Notes: generated by a model not told the origin, from the letters alone. A DNA stretch of 64,000 nucleotides from an uncultured Methanosarcinales archaeon (GCA_964604645.1 CAZRZP010000001.1:9394-73393); one strand, 5' to 3'; positions 10,147 through 54,639 are shown, numbered from the stretch's first letter. Translations and numbers: made by a program.

Positions 10147-10794
10147 TCATTTTTTCAAAGTACACAAACTGCTAAATACAAAATCTGCAGATAAGTCTTC
10201 TTTCAATTTATGGAATGTGTGTTTCTTACCTAGTAACACAACTTTTATTTTTTTTTTCTTACTTGCAACAACATCTGAATGAGCATCGCCAATATATATT
10301 ACTTCCGATGGCTTTAATTTATGTTTACGTAAAACATGGTTGAAATTATTAATCTTACTTGTAGGTCCTCCCAATATTTCATCAAAATATTTGGCAACTC
10401 CACAATGCCCAGCTATTTTTTTAACTTCTTTTATATTTTCAAGAGATAAAAGAAACATAAAATCTACTTGCCGGCGCAATTCTTTAATGATATTAGAACA
10501 TTGAAATAATGGACAAAACCTCATATTCTTCACATAATGTTCACCAAAATGATCAGCCACCATTTTTTTTTCTTTTTTAGTTGTTTTTCTATCTAAAAAA
10601 TATTCAAATAATTTCTCAACTTTATCGTCCCTGCTATATCCTTTTCCAATTAATTTCTCATATTCTTTCCTTACTCCACGCTTAAGACCAAATTTTTCTC
10701 TAAAAACAGACGCCATTGCTGGCCCTTTCTTATCTTCTGACATAATAAGCGTCCCATCAAAATCAAAACCGACGGCTCTAATCATATAAACCAA
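10147..10794 (-). CDS. HAD-superfamily hydrolase
   Basis: Motif I 'FDFDGTL' and motif IV 'GDAHSDV'. The real start is probably 'MIRAVGFDFDGTL'. Confidence 0.65.
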   Translation of the reverse strand: MVYMIRAVGFDFDGTLIMSEDKKGPAMASVFREKFGLKRGVRKEYEKLIGKGYSRDDKVEKLFEYFLDRKTTKKEKKMVADHFGEHYVKNMRFCPLFQCSNIIKELRRQVDFMFLLSLENIKEVKKIAGHCGVAKYFDEILGGPTSKINNFNHVLRKHKLKPSEVIYIGDAHSDVVASKKKKIKVVLLGKKHTFHKLKEDLSADFVFSSLCTLKK

Positions 10795-11468
10795 CTCATA
10801 ATAATAAGAGCTGAGTAGAGAATAAAGGCAATAGTAAAATAACCAATCTTACCCTTTCTACCAAAAGGTATGTGGTGCCTAGTAACTGTGAATAATAAAA
10901 CTCCGGTTGCTAATCCTATTAAAGTAAATTCAAACCATTCTGGCATAAATGGGTTGGCAAATATTCCTATTAAAACTCCTAATAATGTGCTTGATGACAG
11001 AAATAAAGCCTTTTGTTTGCTAGTGTGTGGATGCGAAGGTAAATTACTTACAATTGTAAAAGATATCATCGTAAAGAACAACAATAATCCTCGAACGATA
11101 CTGAATTGTGTAAATGCCACTAATACTATGCCCAGAATTACATGATATGCGTAGTAGAATGAATGTTCCTCTAAAGTTAACATCTTAACTAAATCGTGTT
11201 TAGTGTTATGTTGATAGATCTGTTTTTCTATTAGATGATGGCCAATAAAACCAAGCAATACTGAAATAAATAAAAGCCTGCTATGCCTAAAGGCTCCTTC
11301 TGTAAACATAGGAAATAGTTCCAGAAGTAAATATGTTATCGAAACTCCTGCAGAAAAAGAAAGAAGTTTAGATGTGTGACTCTTTCCACGTACGTTAAAC
11401 CTCTTTGCATTGTATTCGGTTAAACCAACACACATAGCCAATAAAATTGGAATAAAAACGTTTACCAT
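10782..11468 (-). CDS. polytopic membrane protein, possibly a ZIP-like metal transporter
   Basis: About 6-8 predicted TM helices. His-containing segments 'HHLIEKQIYQHNTKHD' and 'FTEGAF' loosely resemble ZIP motifs. The assignment is tentative. Confidence 0.3.
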   Translation of the reverse strand: MVNVFIPILLAMCVGLTEYNAKRFNVRGKSHTSKLLSFSAGVSITYLLLELFPMFTEGAFRHSRLLFISVLLGFIGHHLIEKQIYQHNTKHDLVKMLTLEEHSFYYAYHVILGIVLVAFTQFSIVRGLLLFFTMISFTIVSNLPSHPHTSKQKALFLSSSTLLGVLIGIFANPFMPEWFEFTLIGLATGVLLFTVTRHHIPFGRKGKIGYFTIAFILYSALIIMSWFI

Positions 11469-12302: not shown

Positions 12303-12944
12303 TTGGTGGGCATATTTATAGTTGAATATACTATGCGAATGGTCGTTGCTAAGAAAAAAGTAAAACATTTTTTTAACATCTATAGCCTCATAGATTTAAT
12401 TGCTATTTTACCTGTGATGGTTCACTTTGTCAATCTATCCTTCTTTAGAATATTCAGGATTTTAAGGATGTTTAGAATGTTGCGGGTTTTACGTTTTCAA
12501 AGGATATTCAAACAGAAAAATACTATGTTTGGTAACCTTACTGACACACAACTTATTGTTATTAGAATCGTACTCACCGTATTTACAATTGTCTTTGTAT
12601 CTTCAGGAATGATTTGGGCTGTTGAAAGTAAAGTTAATCCTGATTATGGGACTATTTGGGATTCAATGTATTTTTCAATTGTAACTCTATCAACAGTAGG
12701 TTATGGTGATGTAACTCCACTATCTGTATGGGGGAAGATTGTTACCATTGTGATGATATTGTCGGGTATTGCTCTGATTCCATGGCAATTAGGAAAACTG
12801 GTTAAAGTTTTATTCATGTCTGCTGGCAAAGGGCAGAATAAATGTAAGAAATGCGGTTTAGCAGATCATGATTTAGATGCACAACATTGCAAGAATTGTG
12901 GCAGAAAACTTAACAAAAAACCTAAAACAGAAAAACCTTCTTAA
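12303..12944 (+). CDS. minimal K+ channel: S3-S4 voltage-sensor paddle, pore domain (TVGYGD) and a C-terminal zinc ribbon
   Basis: Selectivity filter 'TLSTVGYGDVTP'. S4 with Arg every third residue: 'FRIFRILRMFRMLRVLRFQRIF'. C-terminal 'CKKCG...CKNCG'. An in-frame stop lies immediately upstream, so there is no S1-S2. An ATG at 12333 is an alternative start. Confidence 0.7.
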   Translation: MVGIFIVEYTMRMVVAKKKVKHFFNIYSLIDLIAILPVMVHFVNLSFFRIFRILRMFRMLRVLRFQRIFKQKNTMFGNLTDTQLIVIRIVLTVFTIVFVSSGMIWAVESKVNPDYGTIWDSMYFSIVTLSTVGYGDVTPLSVWGKIVTIVMILSGIALIPWQLGKLVKVLFMSAGKGQNKCKKCGLADHDLDAQHCKNCGRKLNKKPKTEKPS

Positions 12945-14139
12945 TTTTTTTAACTTTTTCTTTAAAGTATTTTTCTTTAACTAAAAACTTGACATATTCT
13001 TCTGCTTCAGTATGTTTGACTTTAACTTTACCCCAAACATGTCCATTTTTTATATAATTATTTTTATGAAATTTCTTAAACCTCTTAACATGTTCCTTCA
13101 TAGGAAGAGGGGGACCTTTACGTTCTTCAACTGCTGCAATCTTTTTCTTTTTCAAAAAGAAATAATAAGTTACTTCTTTTTTCCAATCCCAACCAAATTT
13201 CTTTACTTCGAATGGTTCTAACTTATTAAGCAAAAAATCTCTACCCTTCACCAATTTCATTCCAACAACATCTGTTTTCCCGCTTAATGGTACCAAGTTT
13301 ATCACAAGCAATGCTTTCTTCTTTCTTTTAGCTTCTTTTCCTAATAATTCTATATTAAATTCTTTCTCTAAAAAGAAATCTTCTTTTGGTTTTTTTAAGA
13401 ATCTCTTTGCTAATTTTTGAAATAATTTATACTTTTCCACTGACACAGCCGCTGCGGCATTTCTTGTTTTATCAACTGGATCCACAATAATCAGTGGACA
13501 TTGAGTTTTTGATGTGTTTAAATTAAACAAAACATCATTTTTTGGATAATATTTAGAAATGTCTATTACTTCCTGGTTTTTCCATTTTATTACAGATTTC
13601 AACACTTTCTCAAATGAACTGTAATGTGCAACTAATATTTCAATGATATATCCACTAAAACCAGCAATATGTGATTCAGCCCCGTATAAACCTTGCGCTC
13701 TACAAAACTGTTTTAACAATAGTATTTCATCTTTCTTTCCTTTTGTATGTTTATTTACCCATTTACTATGTAATGGAGAAATGTCAGTAATGTTTAATGC
13801 CTGTTCGGCTTTAGATATTTCTACAATTGGCACTAGTTCAAATAGAATTCCCTTATATTTAACTTGAAAATAATCTCTACTTCCATGTAATCTATCAACT
13901 TTTTTGAAAGATTTCTTAAGTTCAACTTCCAATTTGTCTGAAATATCGTTAACATTTTTTGGAAAGATCACAAAGATATCAATATCATGACTATTTGCTA
14001 ACCATGTTTCTTTTGCACCACTCCCTCCCAGTATTGTTTTGTATTTAATCTTCTTCAGAAATTCTTTGATTATAGACTTTAATTTCGCTTTTTCTTGAGG
14101 TCCTGGCCGAATTCTTTGCAAGATGGTTGAATAATCCAT
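12922..14139 (-). CDS. cca: archaeal class I CCA-adding tRNA nucleotidyltransferase
   Basis: 'GGSGAKETWLANSHDIDIFVIFP' matches the archaeal CCA enzyme catalytic motif (GS...DIDIF). The listed ORF extends to 14193. I prefer the start at 'MDYSTILQRI'. Confidence 0.75.
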   Translation of the reverse strand: MDYSTILQRIRPGPQEKAKLKSIIKEFLKKIKYKTILGGSGAKETWLANSHDIDIFVIFPKNVNDISDKLEVELKKSFKKVDRLHGSRDYFQVKYKGILFELVPIVEISKAEQALNITDISPLHSKWVNKHTKGKKDEILLLKQFCRAQGLYGAESHIAGFSGYIIEILVAHYSSFEKVLKSVIKWKNQEVIDISKYYPKNDVLFNLNTSKTQCPLIIVDPVDKTRNAAAAVSVEKYKLFQKLAKRFLKKPKEDFFLEKEFNIELLGKEAKRKKKALLVINLVPLSGKTDVVGMKLVKGRDFLLNKLEPFEVKKFGWDWKKEVTYYFFLKKKKIAAVEERKGPPLPMKEHVKRFKKFHKNNYIKNGHVWGKVKVKHTEAEEYVKFLVKEKYFKEKVKKIKKVFLF

Positions 14140-14227
14140 GTCTAGACTAAAATCGTAGATTATATAAATTTTATTTAGTATTAATGGTAACAAGCTTTTT
14201 TAAATTGATAGTGTTCTGAAGTTTAAG

Positions 14228-16876: not shown

Positions 16877-17668
16877 ATGGAGATTGAATTTGATTTGAAG
16901 AAAGGCGTAGATGAGAACGCTGGCCACTATTTTGACTTAGCAAAGAAGGCTAAAAAGAAGTTAGAGGGAGCAAAAGATGCTTTACAAAAAAGTGCGAAAG
17001 ACCTAGAAAAGCTCAGAAAGGATGAAAAAAAATTCTTAGTGGAAGAGGAAAAAAAGCAAATAAGGAAACAAAGAAAAAAAGAATGGTATGAAAAATTTCA
17101 TTGGTTTATCTCTTCAGAAGGTTATCTTTGTATTGGTGGAAAAGATGCAACTTCAAATGAAGTCATTATTAAGAAACATGCTGAAAAAGGAGATATAGTT
17201 TTACACACAGATATGGCTGGTTCTCCATTCTTTGTAGTTAAGAATGGTGAAGAAGCTACGGAAAAGACAATTGAAGAGGCAGCAGAAGTGGTAGCTGCTT
17301 ATTCCAGAGCTTGGAAATTAGGTCATTCAACGGCTGACGTTTTCCATGTAAGGCCAGAACAGGTTACAAAAGAAGCAAAGTCAGGAGAAAGTTTACAGAA
17401 AGGCAGTTTTATGATTTATGGAAAAACTGAGTATCATCATCCCCGTTTGCAGTTTGCAATTGGTTTAGTTAAAGATGAAAAAGGTGAAGAAGTGATTGGT
17501 GGTCCTATTTCAGCTGTAAAAGCCAAAACATCAAATTTCATAAAAGTTATTCCAGGAAGAGAGAAAAAATCTGCATTGGCTAAAAAGATAAAGTCTAAAT
17601 TGAAAGGCGGCCATTTGGATGATATAATTAAATTCTTACCTGCTGGTGGCGGGCAACTTAAGAAATAA
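16877..17668 (+). CDS. NFACT-R (DUF814) domain protein with an N-terminal coiled coil (ribosome quality-control-related family)
   Basis: 'WFISSEGYLCIGGKDATSNEVIIKKHAEKGDIVLHTDMAGSPFFVVK...EAAEVVAAYSRAWK...ADVFHVRPEQVTK' matches the DUF814 consensus. Confidence 0.6.
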   Translation: MEIEFDLKKGVDENAGHYFDLAKKAKKKLEGAKDALQKSAKDLEKLRKDEKKFLVEEEKKQIRKQRKKEWYEKFHWFISSEGYLCIGGKDATSNEVIIKKHAEKGDIVLHTDMAGSPFFVVKNGEEATEKTIEEAAEVVAAYSRAWKLGHSTADVFHVRPEQVTKEAKSGESLQKGSFMIYGKTEYHHPRLQFAIGLVKDEKGEEVIGGPISAVKAKTSNFIKVIPGREKKSALAKKIKSKLKGGHLDDIIKFLPAGGGQLKK

Positions 17669-17709: not shown

Positions 17710-17831
17710 GCCCCGGTAGTATAATGGATACTATTGCCATAAAGTACGCAAGGTTGCGGATTATTAAGTAAACACCTTGAGATCGGAGTTCAATTTGCGG
17801 CCTAAACCGTTTGAAAATCTTCGCCGGGGCA
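17710..17831 (+). tRNA. intron-containing tRNA gene with about three introns (D-arm region, canonical 37/38 and T-loop); anticodon probably GCG (Arg); no encoded CCA
   Basis: 7-bp GC acceptor stem 'gccccgg'/'ccggggc' with discriminator 'a'. T8 is present. D-loop has 'GG'. Anticodon stem 'caagg'/'ccttg' with loop 'tt-gcg-g' interrupted by a 14-nt insert before A38. Variable loop 'agat'. T-stem 'cggag'/'cttcg' with T-loop 'ttcaa|at' split by a 23-nt insert. The minus-strand reading fails on T8 and GG. Confidence 0.6.
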
Positions 17832-17879
17832 CTTTTTAACAAAAATAATATAAAGAAATAAATTTTTCATCAACTGTCC

Positions 17880-17985
17880 AACTGGATATAGCTCAGGTCT
17901 TCGGACCACTAATGCCTCTCACTCTTACGGAGAAGAGAGAAACACATTAACTAATGCGACTCCTGTTGGACATTTCTCCATATAA
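17880..17985 (+). other. candidate structured ncRNA region (strand uncertain)
   Basis: Sits in a 340-nt non-coding gap between the tRNA and valS. Long-range pairing 'gtccaac'...'gttggac' about 90 nt apart. It encloses a 'ggtc-UUCG-gacc' tetraloop hairpin and a 'ctctt-acggag-aagag' hairpin. Local GC is elevated. Confidence 0.25.
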
Positions 17986-22509: not shown

Positions 22510-23295
22510 TTAATTAATTTTAAATCTTAAAACCCGATTTCCTTCAAAGAATTCATATTCTGTAGACTCTTTATTTATAAGTTTAGGTAATCCTGGAAAA
22601 ATAAGAATTTCTTTTATATTTGATAAATCATCAACATTAAAAAAAAGCGACCCAGTATGAGATTGTCTTGCTTTGTAATAGCCTCCTATTCCTTCAACTC
22701 TTCCAAAATGTTCAATTAATACTTCATCAAAAATTGATTGACTAATACTTCTTTTATTATCTTTAGTTAATAATAATGCATATGTCCTAAAACGATTCAT
22801 TGTTTTTCTATTATTTGTAAGTTCTACTTCTAATCGAATATATTTTTTTTTACTTGTGGAATAAGAAAATTCTTTTAGCTCAACAACGCCGATTCTTTTC
22901 AATGTTATCTCTAAGTCGGACGTTTTTATTGTTTTTCCTATTTCTTTAGCAGAAAGTCTATAATTTTCATCAACAAATTTTTGTTTTTCTTCAATCTTTA
23001 ATTGTTTAACATCATCTAATGCACTCGTTATTACCATAGTCAACCAAATAATAAACGCAATTATCACAAATAATTTGATTAAAGTATTATTTCTGGTATC
23101 TTTTGAACGAAGTTTGTTCATATTTTGCCATATAAAAAAAAAGACAAGAATAAAACTCCACAATAAAACTCTCACTTGAATAGCTTCTTCCTTGCTTGAT
23201 GGAATATATCCAGAAACAAGAATTAGAATTGACAAAAAGATACCAATACTTATTGATATTACAAATTTGTGGATATTGCCTAACTTATTTTTCAT
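22510..23295 (-). CDS. membrane-anchored hypothetical protein
   Basis: Three N-terminal TM helices followed by a soluble beta-rich domain. Confidence 0.35.
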   Translation of the reverse strand: MKNKLGNIHKFVISISIGIFLSILILVSGYIPSSKEEAIQVRVLLWSFILVFFFIWQNMNKLRSKDTRNNTLIKLFVIIAFIIWLTMVITSALDDVKQLKIEEKQKFVDENYRLSAKEIGKTIKTSDLEITLKRIGVVELKEFSYSTSKKKYIRLEVELTNNRKTMNRFRTYALLLTKDNKRSISQSIFDEVLIEHFGRVEGIGGYYKARQSHTGSLFFNVDDLSNIKEILIFPGLPKLINKESTEYEFFEGNRVLRFKIN

Positions 23296-27223: not shown

Positions 27224-28324
27224 TTATTTGCAGGATTTTGAGTTATTATAAACTGTATCTATTACTACGTATTGCTGTTTTGAGTGAAGTTGACTCACTG
27301 AGAATCCACGTTTTAAATGAAATAAATTCGTTAAAACTGCATCAACAAAACCAAGCTTTTCTTTGTTAAACAACCCGCATTTTTGTTTATTAATTTGTTC
27401 ACCCAAATATATTAACTGTTCTTCTGATGGACGATATTGGTCTCCTTCAAACTTTTCCATAAATTCAACAGCTATTTGTAATTCAGGGGGAATATTTCCT
27501 AAAACTTCTAATACACTTTTAGGGTCGTATTGAATTGCTGACCGGCACATGTCGAATAATGCATCATTATCTTGACATGCATTATGTCTTGAAGTTGTAT
27601 ATGTGGAACTATCTCCAAAACAAGTTAAAGAAAAGACATATTCTTTTCCTCTACAATATTCTGCAATACTTGCTTTCCTTTTATCTTCATCCTTTTCCCT
27701 AAGAAGGTCTTTTAGTAAATCTCTACCAAGATCTCTTGACAACATAAGGTCATTTAGATTTCTCGGGTTTAATAGACTGAATAGTTGTTTACCCGCTTCA
27801 ATTCTCGTTGATTTTTTTAGTGAAGAATAAATTCCTGAAATTACTTTTGAACTTTTGTAATTGTCACAATTTCTAAGAGCACGGTGAAATTCTATAAATG
27901 CTCTTGTTGCTTTTTCTGGACCATACTTTTTTTCTATATCTTGGAACCTAGCTTGTATATCATAAGATAACCAGTCTGTTACAGAATCTTTCAAACAATC
28001 TCCCTTTCTAAATTCTTCAAATACTTTCTGTCCTAATCCAATGTTGTTATCTATTTCTAATTTTGGTAAACCAGTTGGTATGATTAGTTTCGTTGGTGTA
28101 GCTGACTTTGGTTTTTCTACAATTATTGGTTCTTTAACAATTCTTTCAGATACTTTCGTTTCTAATACTTCCTCTTCTTCTACATTTCTTACGTCTTCAA
28201 TTGTATCTTCTTTTGGTTGGTAAGAAAGAACATCATAAGTACACCAACCTGTTATCCCTAACGCAAGTGCTGCTAATCCAGTTGCTACTCTGTTTCTGGT
28301 TGTCATTTGTCTAAATCTGCGCAA
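27224..28324 (-). CDS. membrane-anchored Cys-containing hypothetical protein (tandem paralog 1)
   Basis: Shares the N-terminus 'TTRN..TGLAALAL.ITGWCTYD.LS....EDTIEDVRNVE..EVLETKV' with the adjacent gene. Confidence 0.4.
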   Translation of the reverse strand: MRRFRQMTTRNRVATGLAALALGITGWCTYDVLSYQPKEDTIEDVRNVEEEEVLETKVSERIVKEPIIVEKPKSATPTKLIIPTGLPKLEIDNNIGLGQKVFEEFRKGDCLKDSVTDWLSYDIQARFQDIEKKYGPEKATRAFIEFHRALRNCDNYKSSKVISGIYSSLKKSTRIEAGKQLFSLLNPRNLNDLMLSRDLGRDLLKDLLREKDEDKRKASIAEYCRGKEYVFSLTCFGDSSTYTTSRHNACQDNDALFDMCRSAIQYDPKSVLEVLGNIPPELQIAVEFMEKFEGDQYRPSEEQLIYLGEQINKQKCGLFNKEKLGFVDAVLTNLFHLKRGFSVSQLHSKQQYVVIDTVYNNSKSCK

Positions 28325-29328
28325 ATATTTGGGTCACTTAATGCTTCAAAGATTTCTCTTTCTAAGTATCTTGCAGTCTTTCCAACAATTAATTCATAGT
28401 TATCTATTGTTGCAATAACGGCCCGATCACTTTTTCCATTCTTACAGGATAACTTCATGATGGCAGTTCTCATTTCATCATAACTTAATTTTTTATTTTT
28501 ATATTCTAAAGGGATAGAAAATTCGGGAGGTATTTCTCCCAATTCATCTTTTGCTAATTTACTTGTTATTTCTGAAAAATATGCTGGTAAAAGTCTGCAT
28601 ACATTTCCATTTTTTGAATCTTCAAGTTGATATCGGCACTTTAAACCACTATAATGTTCTTTGCTTGAATCTAAACAAGGCTCTTTAAGTGATGCATACT
28701 CTCCCGAACATAATTGGTCTATTTGATCTTTTTTTTCAAGTTCAGAAAGTTTTTGTTTTTTTAATAACTCCAAAAATTCAATCCCATAAGAAATTCTTTT
28801 TCTACTTTCCACTACATCTATTAGTCCCCGATAGAAATCTAATTTTGCAGAAGCATTTAACCCCTTGGATATTTTTCCGATAGCCCATCCAGTGTTACAA
28901 TTTGGATCTGCAAAATAATTCCTAGCAAAATCAATAGCAACTTTAACTGTTTCTTCTAAGCCGTATTTAGCTTGAATTTCTGCAAACCTTGGCGCAAGAA
29001 TATTATCCCACGGCATAGGAAGGCAAGGATCTCTATCTATTGTATCCTTTTGTATCTCTTTAAGATAATCCTCAAATACTTGTTTTCCTAATCCTTCTGG
29101 AGCTCTTTCTAAATCTAATGATGGCAATGTTGCTGGAACTGCTAATGGTGTTGCTTCTGGAGCTTCAACCTTCGTTTCTAAAACTTCGTCATCTTCTACA
29201 TTTCTTACATCTTCAATTGTATCTTCGTCTTGATTAGTATCTGTAGAAAGAATATCATAAGTGCACCAGCCTGTGATACTTAATGCTAATGCTGCTAATC
29301 CGGTTAATATTTTGTTTCTGGTTGTCAT
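28303..29328 (-). CDS. membrane-anchored Cys-containing hypothetical protein (tandem paralog 2)
   Basis: Paralog of 27224-28324 with a conserved N-terminal signal-anchor and acidic stalk. Confidence 0.4.
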   Translation of the reverse strand: MTTRNKILTGLAALALSITGWCTYDILSTDTNQDEDTIEDVRNVEDDEVLETKVEAPEATPLAVPATLPSLDLERAPEGLGKQVFEDYLKEIQKDTIDRDPCLPMPWDNILAPRFAEIQAKYGLEETVKVAIDFARNYFADPNCNTGWAIGKISKGLNASAKLDFYRGLIDVVESRKRISYGIEFLELLKKQKLSELEKKDQIDQLCSGEYASLKEPCLDSSKEHYSGLKCRYQLEDSKNGNVCRLLPAYFSEITSKLAKDELGEIPPEFSIPLEYKNKKLSYDEMRTAIMKLSCKNGKSDRAVIATIDNYELIVGKTARYLEREIFEALSDPNICADLDK

Positions 29329-39479: not shown

Positions 39480-39647
39480 ATGGCAAATAAATATCTCAAA
39501 GTAAGATGTGCAAAGTGTAAAAACGAACAAATTATTTTTAGTAAAGTTAGCTCAAAAGTTGAATGCCTTGTTTGTAGCAAAGAAATGGCAACTCCAACTG
39601 GTGGCAAGTCTAAGATTTCCGCTCGTCTTTTGGAAATTCTCGAATAA
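39480..39647 (+). CDS. rps27e: 30S ribosomal protein S27e (55 aa, absent from the ORF track)
   Basis: Translation 'MANKYLKVRCAKCKNEQIIFSKVSSKVECLVCSKEMATPTGGKSKISARLLEILE' shows the C4 zinc finger and 'PTGGK' motif of S27e. It starts 2 nt after the rpl44e stop. Confidence 0.8.
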   Translation: MANKYLKVRCAKCKNEQIIFSKVSSKVECLVCSKEMATPTGGKSKISARLLEILE

Positions 39648-41532
39648 TTTTATATTTTTCAACTCCTTTATGGTAGAGTTGACAAGGTTCTGAACAGAAC
39701 CATAATTTTCCTTCTTCAATTCCTTCTCCAATCTCTTCTTTTTTACCACAATGTGGATCTTTTCTAGAACCGTAATTTTTCTTTACGGTTACCTCTTTTT
39801 TCCCACTTCTTATTTTTCTCTCTTTTCCTCTTCCTTTAATTATAAAAATAATTATTACAGTTGAAGCAATTACTGCCAACAATATCCAGATAATTATATT
39901 GTCTCCAACAACATCAGCTTTATCAAAAATTGCTTTTCCTGAAATTGCTCCTGATACTAGTTGCTCACAGCTTCTTTCTGTTTCTAATTCTCTTTCAATT
40001 TCACATTTATTCAACTCAACGCAGGTTCTTTTCTGAACACCACTTACGCAAGTTCTCGGGTACCATAGAGTACATTCCCAATCGGGCTGACATAAACAGA
40101 TTTGTGTATCTATATATTCAACAGCACTACAATCTAAACTTGTATTGATGCATGCCCTTTGCTGGTAACCATTTTCTCCACATTCTTCTGGGAACCAATC
40201 CACACAACTTGTCTTCTCTTGACAACCTCCTGTTTTCTTTACCGCAATAACAAAGAAACTAAATCCTTCGGAATAAGATTTGAAATAAGCAAAAGTTCCG
40301 TCTTCTCCAGTTTTTGTGGTGCCTAACTCTTCCCATTTATTGTTCTTAAAACGGTAAAGACTTACTGCTTCATGTTCAAATCCTTTATTGTTTAGCCAAG
40401 ATAATTCTACTCTAAAATCAAAATTTGAAGCTCTTGGAGATGTATCGTCAGACAGTTTCAGTTCATAATAATTAAGTACAATTGCTGGTGGAGAAATTGA
40501 AATCCCTAAAGGTTTTCGATCAAATTTTTTGATACTAAACACACTCTCAGCTGGCTTATCCATTAATGTTGTTACTGTAAAGATGTCTATGCCTTCTTCT
40601 TTTATGTTGATTTCATTTTCTCCTTGTTTAAAGATTGTTGATTGTTCGGATTGTGCTATTACTTTTTCAGGAACGATTAAAGAGGCCGCCGCTGTACCTG
40701 CAGCTGCAGCACCGCCGCCTCCACCGCCTCCGCCGCCACCACCACCAATGACGACGGTTGTAGTTGTATCTGGACACGTTCCACAATCAGCTGTACAGGA
40801 AGAACAACTTTCTCCAGCATTACAAGTTGCATCTCCACAAAAATTAGCTACTTCTGTGATGTTTAGGGTCACATTATTTGAATCTACAGTTAATGAAGAA
40901 TCGTTTGCTGTAAATATTGCCCAACTATTGCCAAAGAAATCTGTGTCTGGTTTGAATGAAACTTCATTTAATCCATTAATGGTTACATTAACATTATCTC
41001 CGAACCTAACTGTAAACTTAAGATAATCTCCTTCTGGATCAGAGAAATAATCATCCAAGTCAAGCCCGGTTAAGGTAACGTCTTCTTCCCAACTCTGGTT
41101 TGGAATTATTGTATCTAAAGTTGGGGCAGTATTGCTGAAGTTAATGAAGAATGAAGTTGATGCGTTCCTTGGACATCCTGACACGTTATCATGTACAGTT
41201 ACTTCAACACTTAAATTACCTGTCTGTGTGTGATTTGATGTGAAATTTATCACTCCATTGCTTGAATTTACATCCAAGAATGAATAATTGGCAAAATATT
41301 GAAGAGAATTATTATCTGAATCATTTCCTCTTGCTGTGAATGTTACAGTCGTATTTGCTCCAGCCACTTGATTGGTAATTGAATTGATTGTTGGAGGGGT
41401 ATTGATACATATATTGGATTCACCAGTTGATGTTGTATAACCTGTAATGTTAACCATAGCAAAAAAATTAACTATGTTTAATACAGTCAAAACTAATGCC
41501 AAAGCTATAACTATCCTCTTTTTCAAGTACAT
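39610..41532 (-). CDS. cell-surface protein: signal peptide, Ig-like 'PPTINSI' module, poly-Gly/Ala linker, Cys-rich domain, C-terminal TM plus short cytoplasmic tail
   Basis: N-terminal 'MYLKKRIVIALALVLTVLNIV'. 'NTPPTINSITNQ' is shared with the 44148 giant protein. 'GGGGGGGGGGGGAAAAGTAAA'. TM 'IIIWILLAVIASTVIIIFII'. Many N-x-S/T sequons. Confidence 0.5.
   Translation of the reverse strand: MYLKKRIVIALALVLTVLNIVNFFAMVNITGYTTSTGESNICINTPPTINSITNQVAGANTTVTFTARGNDSDNNSLQYFANYSFLDVNSSNGVINFTSNHTQTGNLSVEVTVHDNVSGCPRNASTSFFINFSNTAPTLDTIIPNQSWEEDVTLTGLDLDDYFSDPEGDYLKFTVRFGDNVNVTINGLNEVSFKPDTDFFGNSWAIFTANDSSLTVDSNNVTLNITEVANFCGDATCNAGESCSSCTADCGTCPDTTTTVVIGGGGGGGGGGGGAAAAGTAAASLIVPEKVIAQSEQSTIFKQGENEINIKEEGIDIFTVTTLMDKPAESVFSIKKFDRKPLGISISPPAIVLNYYELKLSDDTSPRASNFDFRVELSWLNNKGFEHEAVSLYRFKNNKWEELGTTKTGEDGTFAYFKSYSEGFSFFVIAVKKTGGCQEKTSCVDWFPEECGENGYQQRACINTSLDCSAVEYIDTQICLCQPDWECTLWYPRTCVSGVQKRTCVELNKCEIERELETERSCEQLVSGAISGKAIFDKADVVGDNIIIWILLAVIASTVIIIFIIKGRGKERKIRSGKKEVTVKKNYGSRKDPHCGKKEEIGEGIEEGKLWFCSEPCQLYHKGVEKYKIIREFPKDERKS
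40683..40750. repeat. GGN/GCN simple-sequence repeat encoding the poly-Gly/Ala linker
   Basis: 'gccgccgctgtacctgcagctgcagcaccgccgcctccaccgcctccgccgccaccaccacc' on the plus strand. Confidence 0.5.
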
Positions 41533-42623: not shown

Positions 42624-43379
42624 CTAACCCAAATTTAGATTAAGTGATTCTCCACTCACTCCAAGCCCAGCTGCTTCTCCTTCTAAATTTAGTGTGGATT
42701 GTGTGGAATTATCTCTTTTATTCACAACAAATTTTCCAGTATAGGAATCAATGAAAATTTCTTCGTTTTGCAATTGATATTCTAGCTTGTTGTCAACGTT
42801 CAACTTTCCACTTCCACTATCTAATGAAAGAGTTGTTAATTCAATTGAATCCATTGCTATAAAATAATAATTCAAATTTTCAAAAGCTATGCTGATATCT
42901 TTTGGTGAAGAAAGAGCCACTTCGTTTATTTCTATTCTCTTTGCTTTCCCATTTAACGATAATCCAACTCCAGAAAAATCAAATTCTCCTACGAAACCTT
43001 CAATGTTAAGTGATACGTCTCCTAAATTATTCATCTCTAATTTATCATCATTTACTGTTATTGTTTTTGAAAGGTCATCAAAACGCAATTCCATGTTGCT
43101 AACTTTTGCAGTTTGTTTAAAGCCGGGAACTTTGTCAAAATTTAATGCTAAATCTATTATGTTACTATTCTTATTAACATTTTTCACCGCTTCCTTATTG
43201 GAATTTACAACTTTATCTGCTTCCGGACTTTTGTTAGTAAGAATTCCTATTGCTGCTGTTGTTAAGTCAATGGATCCTTCATCGTTATTTGAAAGTAGGA
43301 GTATAAAAATTCCTCCAATGACTAGAGTAATAAGGATTATGTAAAATCTGGTGTGATGTCTTCCTGCATGGGCAACCAT
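42624..43379 (-). CDS. N-terminally anchored or secreted hypothetical protein
   Basis: TM 'FYIILITLVIGGIFILLLS' followed by a beta-rich Asn/Ser/Leu-rich domain. Confidence 0.35.
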   Translation of the reverse strand: MVAHAGRHHTRFYIILITLVIGGIFILLLSNNDEGSIDLTTAAIGILTNKSPEADKVVNSNKEAVKNVNKNSNIIDLALNFDKVPGFKQTAKVSNMELRFDDLSKTITVNDDKLEMNNLGDVSLNIEGFVGEFDFSGVGLSLNGKAKRIEINEVALSSPKDISIAFENLNYYFIAMDSIELTTLSLDSGSGKLNVDNKLEYQLQNEEIFIDSYTGKFVVNKRDNSTQSTLNLEGEAAGLGVSGESLNLNLG

Positions 43380-52765: not shown

Positions 52766-53644
52766 ATGGCAGACGTTTCCAATAATATTGTTGTTGGGCT
52801 ACTTGTTGTGGCTCTTGTTTTAACTATCACTAGTACTGTAGTTAGCTTACAGAAATTAAGTGTACTTGAAGGTAGTTTTAGTCTTCTCACTGGTGCTGCA
52901 ACTACTACTGCTTCAGGAGATTCTAATATAACAATTACTTCGGTAACTTCTATTAAAAATCATAATGCCTCTTTAGGTTTCGGTTCTGGTAATATCAATG
53001 CTACTTGTGATTATTGTCAAATAATTATGGAAGGGTCGGTAATTGATGCATTTTCAAATGGTACGAATGTTGCTAAAATGAATACCCAAGCCAATATTAA
53101 CTGTTGCGTTGGTTTTACAATACCAGGAAACGGATTTATTATAGAAAATATTGGTAACACTAACCTTTCTGTTGGATATACTTGTTCCGAATTGGATGGG
53201 GAGACTAACGCCGCTGGGAATTGCACTTTTAATCATTTTATCGGTGGAACAATTCCAAGTAGCCAAGGGGGTATAAGCTTTAGAATTGAAGCTGAAAGTG
53301 ATAGCTCATTATCTGCTGATGTTGGTACTGATAGTGCAACTGATACAGAATCTTCTTGTGCTGGTGGAGGGAATTATCCTGGCGTTGAAATGTGGAATGC
53401 CACTAATGATAGTGCTTATGGCAATGTTCCTTCAGCCGCAGCTTTTGAAGGTCTTGGAGGAACTGTATTTCACCCTCTTCAACTTTATCATTGGATATGT
53501 GGTAACGCAACGCAGTATCCTTTAGACTCTGGCGCAGATCGTGATGCTGGAGTTATGACTTTTAACGTTACTATTCCGTCTAGTGCCCCATCTGGCCTAG
53601 GTATCAGAGCATTTTTATTAAATTTTAATGGAACTTCTAGTTAA
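52766..53644 (+). CDS. secreted or anchored Cys-containing glycoprotein, tandem paralog A
   Basis: About 60% identity to 53764-54639. N-terminal 'SNNIVVGLLVVALVLTITSTVVSLQKLS'. Conserved C-terminus 'PSSAPSGLGIRAFLLNFNGTSS'. Many sequons. Confidence 0.5.
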   Translation: MADVSNNIVVGLLVVALVLTITSTVVSLQKLSVLEGSFSLLTGAATTTASGDSNITITSVTSIKNHNASLGFGSGNINATCDYCQIIMEGSVIDAFSNGTNVAKMNTQANINCCVGFTIPGNGFIIENIGNTNLSVGYTCSELDGETNAAGNCTFNHFIGGTIPSSQGGISFRIEAESDSSLSADVGTDSATDTESSCAGGGNYPGVEMWNATNDSAYGNVPSAAAFEGLGGTVFHPLQLYHWICGNATQYPLDSGADRDAGVMTFNVTIPSSAPSGLGIRAFLLNFNGTSS

Positions 53645-53763: not shown

Positions 53764-54639
53764 ATGGCGGAGTTTTCAAATAATATCATTGTGGGATTGC
53801 TAGTGGTGGCTCTTGTTTTAACGGTTACCAGTACAGTCGTGAGTTTACAGAAATTGAGTATACTTGAGGGGGGGTTTGAATCTCTAACTTCTGCTGCAAC
53901 CACAACTGCAAGTGGAGATTCAAATATTACTATTAATTCAGTTACCTCTATAAAGAACCATAATTCATCTTTAGGGTTCGGATCCGGTAATGTTAACGCA
54001 ACATGTGATTTCTGCCAATTAACAATGAATGCTACTACAATTGATGGGTTTTCAAATGGTACAACTGTCGCAAGATCTACAACAATAGACGATAGTCTTT
54101 GTTGTGCTGGTTTTACATCTATAGGTTATGGCTTTGTTATTGAAAACATTGGGAATACTAATTTATCGGTTGGTTATACTTGTTCCGAGTTGGATGGCGA
54201 GACTAACGCTGCAGGTAACTGTACTTATGCTCATTTTATTGGAGGTACTATACCAGCAGGCCATGGAGGTATAGGGATTAGAGTAGATGGCGAATTTAAC
54301 CTTGGTGCAGATATAGGTACTGACTCTGCACTTGATACTGTTGAATCTTGTGCTGGTGGAAGTACTAGTTATGTTGGTGTAACTGGTTGGAATATAACTA
54401 ATGCTAGCGCTTACGGAAGTGCTCCAGCAGGAGCCCAGTTTGAAGGTTTAGGAGAAGGCTTATATGCTCAGCTTGGTCTTTACCATTGGTTGTGTGGTAA
54501 TGTAACACATTTTCCTTTAGACTCAGCTGGTGATAGAGACGCTGGGATAGTAAGGTTAAATGTTACAATTCCAAGTAGTGCCCCATCTGGTCTAGGTATT
54601 CGGGCATTTCTATTAAATTTTAACGGAACTTCATCGTAA
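53764..54639 (+). CDS. secreted or anchored Cys-containing glycoprotein, tandem paralog B
   Basis: Paralog of 52766-53644 with the same termini and Cys spacing ('NATCDFCQL', 'LCCAGFT', 'YTCSELDGETNAAGNCT'). Confidence 0.5.
   Translation: MAEFSNNIIVGLLVVALVLTVTSTVVSLQKLSILEGGFESLTSAATTTASGDSNITINSVTSIKNHNSSLGFGSGNVNATCDFCQLTMNATTIDGFSNGTTVARSTTIDDSLCCAGFTSIGYGFVIENIGNTNLSVGYTCSELDGETNAAGNCTYAHFIGGTIPAGHGGIGIRVDGEFNLGADIGTDSALDTVESCAGGSTSYVGVTGWNITNASAYGSAPAGAQFEGLGEGLYAQLGLYHWLCGNVTHFPLDSAGDRDAGIVRLNVTIPSSAPSGLGIRAFLLNFNGTSS

Follow-up and report, generated by a model that had tools for sequence, protein, structure and literature searches.

Does a 122-nt interval that is closed by a perfect 7-bp stem, and that standard tRNA detectors leave blank, encode a working tRNA, and which nucleotides would have to be removed from it? 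We addressed this question in a window of 64 kb (the whole stretch of DNA analyzed, 64,000 nucleotides), for which a preliminary description had proposed a tRNA gene interrupted by three introns. Our analysis leads us to regard the locus (17710-17831, + strand) with high confidence as a functional tRNA-Arg(GCG) gene with three bulge-helix-bulge (BHB) introns, in an archaeon assigned on its sequence to the Woesearchaeota (DPANN).

The sequence of the locus is as first described: GCCCCGG (17710-17716) pairs perfectly with CCGGGGC (17824-17830), enclosing 107 nt, and no CCA is encoded, the discriminator A73 (17831) being followed by CTTTTT. For the G+C content, first given as 32%, we obtained 33.5% in the window. 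No other G+C-rich 7-bp stem with a span of 70-260 nt occurs in the window. Since at least one comparable stem arose in 47% of the windows obtained by block shuffling, the stem alone is not beyond chance; it is the combined features of the locus, and not the acceptor stem by itself, that are. Among 152 loose acceptor-plus-T-arm candidates collected on both strands, this locus was the only one with a G+C-rich acceptor (7/7 G+C, against at most 5 for the others). Three independent metagenome contigs or assemblies carry the 122-nt gene with 100% identity, and two more carry part of it; identical copies on independent contigs indicate that it is not an assembly artefact.

Standard tools did not report the gene. 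ARAGORN found no tRNA in the whole 64-kb window, with or without the -i option, and nothing sensible at lowered thresholds; its intron search on the unspliced locus, which had been put forward as a check, likewise found no tRNA. Rfam gave no match for the whole window, either at the gathering threshold or at E<=1, and a local search at E<=10 returned no tRNA. The unspliced locus gave no RF00005 match even at E<=10, as expected with three insertions. No RNA gene of any Rfam family was detected in the 64-kb window by ARAGORN or Rfam, and with both tools blank, standard annotation would leave the region, including the Arg-GCG isoacceptor, without an RNA gene. Besides this locus, no other hidden tRNA was found, either by the acceptor-plus-T-arm scan or by removal of single BHB introns followed by ARAGORN -i in all 33 intergenic regions. 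The strongest G+C island of the window (40643-40806), which peaks at 74% G+C over 70 nt, was considered as an RNA and rejected, since it is a stretch of glycine codons belonging to an ORF of 640 aa (39610-41532, - strand).

When the three segments listed as introns in Table 1 were removed in silico, the resulting 72-nt sequence (GCCCCGGUAGUAUAAUGGAUAGUACGCAAGGUUGCGGACCUUGAGAUCGGAGUUCAAUUCUUCGCCGGGGCA) was called tRNA-Arg(GCG) by ARAGORN. After removal of the D-loop and T-loop introns only, ARAGORN -i called tRNA-Arg(GCG) with a 14-nt canonical intron, i(39,14). By contrast with these results, removing one intron, or the anticodon intron together with one other, gave no Arg call. The identity and the number of introns first proposed are thus borne out by the ARAGORN call after splicing, and also by the ortholog series described below. 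The spliced sequence holds U8, A14, G18 G19, A21, U33, U54 U55 C56 and A58, and its 7-nt anticodon loop is UUGCGGA, with U33 and G34 C35 G36. In studied systems, A20 in the D-loop is an Arg identity element; the A that follows G18 G19 was invariant in an alignment of 33 spliced sequences. By these features, the predicted product is an Arg isoacceptor with anticodon GCG. The codons CGU and CGC account for 144 of the 19,192 codons in the ORFs of the window, approximately 20% of the Arg codons; these codons being in use, a tRNA-Arg(GCG) is needed.

Table 1. Positions of the predicted parts of the tRNA-Arg(GCG) gene and of neighboring features in the window.
Feature	Position	Strand	Basis or remark
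TATA-box-like promoter element, TTTTAAA	17679..17685	+	-31 to -25, counted from tRNA position 1
Exon 1: acceptor 5' strand GCCCCGG, U8 A9, D-stem 5' strand GUAU	17710..17729	+	
Exon 1, 3' part: D-loop A14 to U20a (AAUGGAU)	within 17710..17729	+	
Intron 1, 13 nt, ACTATTGCCATAA, D-loop between U20a and A21	17730..17742	+	BHB register, MFE fold, orthologs
Exon 2: A21, D-stem 3' strand GUAC, G26, anticodon-stem 5' strand CAAGG	17743..17759	+	
Exon 2, loop: U32 U33 G34 C35 G36 G37, the anticodon GCG being at the positions given	17756-17758	+	
Intron 2, 14 nt, ATTATTAAGTAAAC, canonical 37/38	17760..17773	+	BHB, ARAGORN -i, orthologs
Exon 3: A38, anticodon-stem 3' strand CCUUG, variable loop AGAU	17774..17794	+	
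Exon 3, 3' part: T-stem 5' strand CGGAG, T-loop U54 to U59 (UUCAAU)	within 17774..17794	+	
Intron 3, 23 nt, TTGCGGCCTAAACCGTTTGAAAA, T-loop 59/60	17795..17817	+	BHB, MFE fold, orthologs
Exon 4: U60, T-stem 3' strand CUUCG, acceptor 3' strand CCGGGGC, discriminator A73	17818..17831	+	
C and five T, terminator-like oligo-T tract directly after the gene	17832..17837	+	putative function
Archaeal class I CCA-adding enzyme	12922..14193	-	Pfam PF09249 (1.8e-38), PF01909, PF21133
NFACT-R (DUF814) protein gene, conserved upstream neighbor, synteny anchor	16877..17668	+	

To place the junctions, we applied the BHB geometry of a 4-bp helix (H) and two 3-nt bulges on opposite strands, with the cut after the second base of each bulge. 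Motifs could be drawn at all three introns, that of intron 1 being relaxed. Intron 2, for which the preliminary description had given 14 nt between positions 37 and 38, agrees with it in ARAGORN -i and has a strict hBHBh' motif, in which h is the 5-bp anticodon stem, H consists of 4 bp between UUGC (17754-17757) and GUAA (17768-17771) with bulges GGA and ACA, and h' is 2 bp. The motif of intron 3 is near-strict: h is the 5-bp T stem, H joins UUCA (17789-17792; U54 U55 C56 A57) to UGAA (17812-17815) with bulges AUU and AAU, and an inner helix GCGG/CCGU follows a U-U mismatch. For intron 1, H is formed by AUGG (17724-17727; A15 U16 G18 G19) and CCAU (17737-17740) with bulges AUA and AAA, and sliding both junctions by 1 nt leaves the product unchanged. 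This motif is bulge-helix-loop-like, with A14 unpaired between the D stem and H, h' of at most one C-G pair and the 5' cut site in a 9-nt loop closed by at most one C-G pair. The BHB search in the D region was constrained to a D-loop consistent with the orthologs; the unconstrained pick (H = UAGU/ACUA) was rejected because it deletes G18 G19. The unconstrained minimum free energy (MFE) fold of the 122 nt (-37.5 kcal/mol, z = -2.55) reproduced all three H helices and, of the cloverleaf, the acceptor, D and anticodon stems together with 4 of the 5 T-stem pairs; the central helix in the T-loop is 5 bp in this fold and not 4, with A58 paired too. A tRNA intron of group I or group II is hundreds of nt long and has a catalytic core (P3-P9, or domains I-VI). 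Self-splicing introns of both groups were rejected here, the introns being 13, 14 and 23 nt long and without Rfam intron matches.

A different set of junctions for introns 1 and 3 had first been proposed within the same three-intron tRNA-Arg, namely a T-loop joined as TTCAA + AT to give TTCAAAT and a D-region intron of 16 nt taken out between position 26 and the anticodon stem, which leaves a D arm of GUAU-AAUGG-AUAC. ARAGORN accepts both of these variants as tRNA-Arg(GCG), and TTCAAAT is the commonest T-loop among the more distant orthologs. We nevertheless consider these junctions very unlikely, since the nearest orthologs without the respective intron read TTCAATT in the T-loop (L023) and AATGGATA-GTAT in the D arm (L074, which has no D intron). 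In addition, the BHB register (UUCA/UGAA) puts the cut at 59/60 in 23 of 23 T-loop introns, and the 16-nt D variant has a 5-nt D-loop without A21 and no 4-bp helix in register. What remains of the first proposal is therefore a 23-nt T-loop intron, whose splicing at 59/60 gives TTCAATT, and a D-region intron of exactly 13 nt, instead of 13-16 nt, lying in the D-loop after U20a and before A21 rather than in the 'D-arm/26 region'. With the junctions of Table 1, and because close relatives lack the respective introns, the mature T-loop reads UUCAAUU and the D-loop AAUGGAUA.

We collected the orthologs from 80 loci of GTDB species representatives, fetched with NFACT-R as a synteny anchor. The ortholog finder tolerated one insertion at each of three places, namely the D region, the site following position 37 and the T-loop, and required perfect acceptor, anticodon and T stems. 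Under the strict parse, an orthologous tRNA-Arg(GCG) was found on the same strand downstream of NFACT-R in 46 of the 80 loci; a relaxed parse added at least 8 loci, most of them with T-loop introns of 84-153 nt, for a total of at least 54. Together with the window gene, the 46 species loci make up 47 parsed genes. BHB-guided splicing brought all of them to 72-74 nt, and ARAGORN then called tRNA-Arg(GCG) for 47/47, whereas it made this call for none of the 13 three-intron genes left unspliced. All eight combinations of the D-loop (D), anticodon (A) and T-loop (T) introns occur among the 47 genes (DAT 13, DA- 10, -A- 9, -AT 6, D-- 3, D-T 2, --T 2 and none 2). Three-intron alleles are thus present in the window and in 12 species loci, with 5 more under the relaxed parse. 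On Rfam RF00005, which has a gathering score of 29, the two orthologs without introns, L071 and L019, reach 62.5 and 59.2 bits, and even single-intron orthologs stay below the gathering threshold.

The nearest relatives of the window gene, L074 (--T), L023 (DA-), L051 (D--) and L067 (D-T), differ from it only by intron blocks and have in common with it the unusual D-loop AAUGGAUA and the T-loop UUCRAUU. For each of the three introns of the window gene, there is at least one close relative from which it is missing as a clean block: intron 1 in L074, L060, L071 and L019, intron 2 in L074, L051 and L067, and intron 3 in L023 and L051. Block indels are flush with all three predicted junctions in this series (L074, L023, L051, L067, L060, L071 and L019).

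The introns of the relatives have features of their own. We observed two sites for the D-loop intron, G19/A20 in 20 genes (H = GCCU/AGGC) and U20a/A21 in 8, the window gene included (H = NUGG/CCAN); these two sites suggest independent insertion or intron sliding. Long T-loop introns at 59/60 measure 49-153 nt in the orthologs, and seven of them contain a hairpin whose loop, A(A)CUNGGGA, is conserved and whose stem covaries (UUUCC/GGAAA, CGCC/GGCG, UCGC/GCGA), in the loci L020:3324-3609, L047:4466-4641, L070:2814-3014, L053:3320-3529, L050:4150-4369, L043:1364-1499 and L069:2037-2219. Rfam gave no match on the long T-loop introns of the relatives. At L034 and L036, a second copy of the 3' acceptor strand GCGGGGGCG follows the tRNA-Arg gene at a distance of 3 nt (CGGGGGCG-TTG-CGGCGGGGGCGA), and a short direct repeat of this kind can mark integration at a tRNA 3' end.

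To evaluate the structure of the spliced product, we aligned 33 distinct spliced sequences with MAFFT. Cloverleaf pairs were formed in 99.6% of the cells, compared with 87.8% in shuffles and 34-54% in slid registers. The near-complete pairing is partly by construction, because the finder required perfect acceptor, anticodon and T stems; the changes on both sides, seen in 14 of 21 cloverleaf pairs, and the D stem are independent of this requirement. In the splice motifs, helix H reached 4 bp in 24/28 D-loop introns, 25/38 anticodon introns and 21/23 T-loop introns, with a minimum of 3 bp throughout, and shifting the 3' register by 1-4 nt reduced its mean to 0.5-2.4 bp. For the anticodon intron this test has no free parameter, since the tRNA fixes both junctions. 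Covariation extends into the motifs themselves: H of the D-loop intron varies as AUGG/CCAU, GUGG/CCAU, UUGG/CCAG and CUGG/CCAG in one class and as GCCU/AGGC, GCUU/AAGU and GCAU/AUGC in the second. All 23 parsed T-loop introns have the 59/60 site in common, and their H covaries as UUCA/UGAA versus UUCG/CGAA, with the exon change A57G accompanied by U-to-C in the intron (L045, L060, L067).

These data bear on whether the locus could be a decaying tRNA pseudogene, with accumulated insertions and a transcript that is not made or not spliced, while another gene supplies tRNA-Arg(GCG). Its rejection by standard detectors speaks for such a relic, but we consider this explanation very unlikely. Across at least 47 species, the exons show conservation and covariation, in contrast to inserted blocks of freely varying length and sequence; every inserted block has a BHB helix in exact register, and the promoter box is conserved. 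Random insertions would neither share three sites nor preserve the splice geometry, and the three-intron form recurs in 13/47 parsed genes and in 5 further genes of the relaxed parse. Finally, that the locus is no Arg tRNA at all, but some other RNA, a tRNA of another identity with one or no intron, or a chance G+C-rich hairpin, has a negligible probability: although a G+C-rich 7-bp stem arises by chance in about half of the shuffled windows, and ARAGORN at lowered thresholds or with the T-loop block alone removed offers 'tRNA-?(aaag)' or 'tRNA-Leu(caa)' with a 4-nt intron, these calls have 4-nt anticodons or 'introns' and mismatched stems and use as anticodon arm the D-loop intron, a segment absent in L074, L060, L071 and L019, and Rfam recognizes the orthologs without introns as genuine tRNAs, with anticodon GCG. 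Together with these two calls, a relaxed tRNA-Ala(tgc) call was rejected on the same grounds of 4-nt anticodons or introns and a segment that orthologs lack.

The reading of the locus as a working three-intron tRNA-Arg(GCG) gene is also consistent with signals for expression. In 43/47 orthologous genes there is a TTTTTAAAG/T box at approximately -32 to -24, and its position and consensus point to an archaeal box A/TATA element. A T4 run occurs within 10 nt downstream in 26/47 genes, and CCA is encoded in 0/47. Since CCA is not encoded, a CCA-adding enzyme is needed, and its gene is located 3.5 kb from the tRNA-Arg gene. The presence of this enzyme in the window had been noted previously and was supported by all three of its Pfam domains; its end was corrected from 14139 to 14193, with a different start codon. 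Between the tRNA gene and ValRS, we also observed a structured intergenic element (17875-17972, + strand), whose closing stem has 8 bp (GUCCAACU/UGUUGGAC) and which contains two hairpins, one of them a GGUC-UUCG-GACC tetraloop hairpin (MFE -30.8 kcal/mol; z = -3.9 on the + strand and -3.0 on the - strand). It had no Rfam match and no conservation by blastn in the loci of other species, and it was rejected as a second disrupted tRNA, single-intron removal having revealed none.

The neighboring genes are archaeal, with the CCA-adding enzyme, ValRS, an RFC-like AAA+ protein, endonuclease V, proteasome alpha, SBDS, exosome Rrp4/41/42 and aIF2-alpha. The closest named relatives of NFACT-R are from Woesearchaeota and Nanoarchaeota MAGs, and the exact protein occurs on five contigs, one of them a 248-kb ENA metagenome scaffold. 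No Pfam match was obtained at E<=0.01 for the ORFs 27224-28324 (-), 28303-29328 (-), 52766-53644 (+), 53764-54639 (+), 42624-43379 (-) and 10782-11468 (-), nor at E<=0.001 for the ORF 22510-23295 (-); these seven ORFs encode 228-366 aa, and two adjacent pairs are among them. A Pfam search covering 40 window ORFs found no EndA (PF01974/PF02778) or RtcB domain, and a blastp/phmmer search with an M. jannaschii EndA query of unverified sequence gave no match in the window. The splicing endonuclease is presumably encoded elsewhere in the genome, outside the window.

We propose that the gene would be transcribed from its own TATA-like promoter into a precursor of about 122 nt with three protein-spliced BHB introns. 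In each, four 3'-proximal nt of the intron would pair with four exon nt located two positions upstream of the 5' splice site, so that both junctions fall in 3-nt bulges flanking a 4-bp helix. By analogy with established archaeal tRNA splicing, EndA would cleave both strands behind the second nucleotide of the bulge, the four exons would presumably be joined by an RtcB-type ligase, and the CCA-adding enzyme would complete the 3' end. As introns 1 and 3 interrupt both loops, the contact between the D-loop and the T-loop should form only after splicing. The mature tRNA would read CGU and CGC codons, and the gene is probably the working copy of the cell. A strict BHB should be cut by any archaeal EndA. 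Relaxed, bulge-helix-loop-like motifs have been reported to need broad-specificity enzymes (PMC4033280, PMC3239211). The earlier suggestion that splicing here requires such an endonuclease would thus apply to the relaxed D-loop motif, but not to the strict motif at 37/38 or to the near-strict one in the T-loop.

Multi-intron archaeal tRNAs are already known; what is added here is the specific three-intron gene and its ortholog series. Canonical archaeal tRNAs with a single intron, as reportedly described by Marck and Grosjean in 2003, have a strict hBHBh' at 37/38. Intron 2, with its 5-bp h, 4-bp H and two 3-nt bulges, is such a textbook intron, and the gene differs from the canonical ones by two further introns in the D- and T-loops. 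Among the Thermoproteales, multiple-intron tRNA genes have been described in Pyrobaculum, Thermofilum and Caldivirga (Sugahara et al., 2007/2008, reviewed in PMC4033280). The precedents initially invoked, Thermoproteales and some reduced archaea, hold for the former and, for the latter, for ARMAN. As in the Thermoproteales, up to three BHB introns per tRNA occupy 37/38 and D/T-region sites, introns are quickly gained and lost among relatives, and intron-aware finders such as SPLITS are needed (PMC4033280). In contrast to these hyperthermophilic crenarchaea, the host is represented by a low-G+C (33.5%) MAG assigned to the DPANN Woesearchaeota, and one orthologous gene takes eight occupancy states of three sites across species. 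Whereas the endonuclease of the Thermoproteales is an (alpha-beta)2 enzyme with a crenarchaeal loop, that of the host is expected to be of a different type.

Disrupted tRNAs are also listed for ARMAN-1/2, N. equitans, M. kandleri and Korarchaeum (PMC4033280), and ARMAN-1/2 have an epsilon2 EndA (PMC3239211). A 2018 survey predicted the tRNA sets of DPANN genomes, a Woesearchaeota MAG among them, and its incomplete sets imply unidentified disrupted tRNA genes (PMC5829648). The present locus, blank to ARAGORN and Rfam, is a gene of this kind. The present gene belongs to the same superphylum, in which non-canonical and multiple introns have already been reported (PMC5829648, PMC3239211). Unlike our locus-level ortholog series, that survey was per-genome and based on tRNAscan-SE 2.0 (PMC5829648). 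In the DPANN and ARMAN literature compared, we found no description of this specific gene, of its three sites or of the cross-species intron polymorphism. The red alga C. merolae has a three-intron tRNA-Ile with a D/anticodon/T layout. There too, each of three arms holds one intron and the endonuclease recognizes BHB motifs; this gene is, however, eukaryotic and nuclear, is served by a heterotetrameric Sen complex and is unrelated by descent, the resemblance being convergent.

One could further imagine that in Woesearchaeota the single syntenic tRNA-Arg(GCG) gene, with its three slots, is an ongoing hotspot of intron turnover in which introns are kept for a purpose, either as a module formed by the hairpin of the T-loop introns, present in at least seven species, or for protection against elements. 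We consider this idea rather unlikely. If the hairpin were a functional RNA or protein-binding module, or if the introns guarded the gene from integrating elements, the introns would be maintained and not neutral, and the 23-nt T-loop intron of the window would then be a minimized remnant.

Overall, the understanding of tRNA splicing is unchanged by this locus. The analysis recovers a gene for a tRNA reading CGU and CGC that was missed by ARAGORN and Rfam, and would thereby explain part of the 'missing tRNA' problem of the DPANN. With at least 54 orthologous loci that carry 0-3 introns in the same three regions, it provides a compact natural series in which the gain, loss and shift of BHB introns can be studied. 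It also bears on the substrate range of DPANN endonucleases, which would have to cover strict motifs at 37/38 and 59/60 as well as a relaxed motif in the D-loop.
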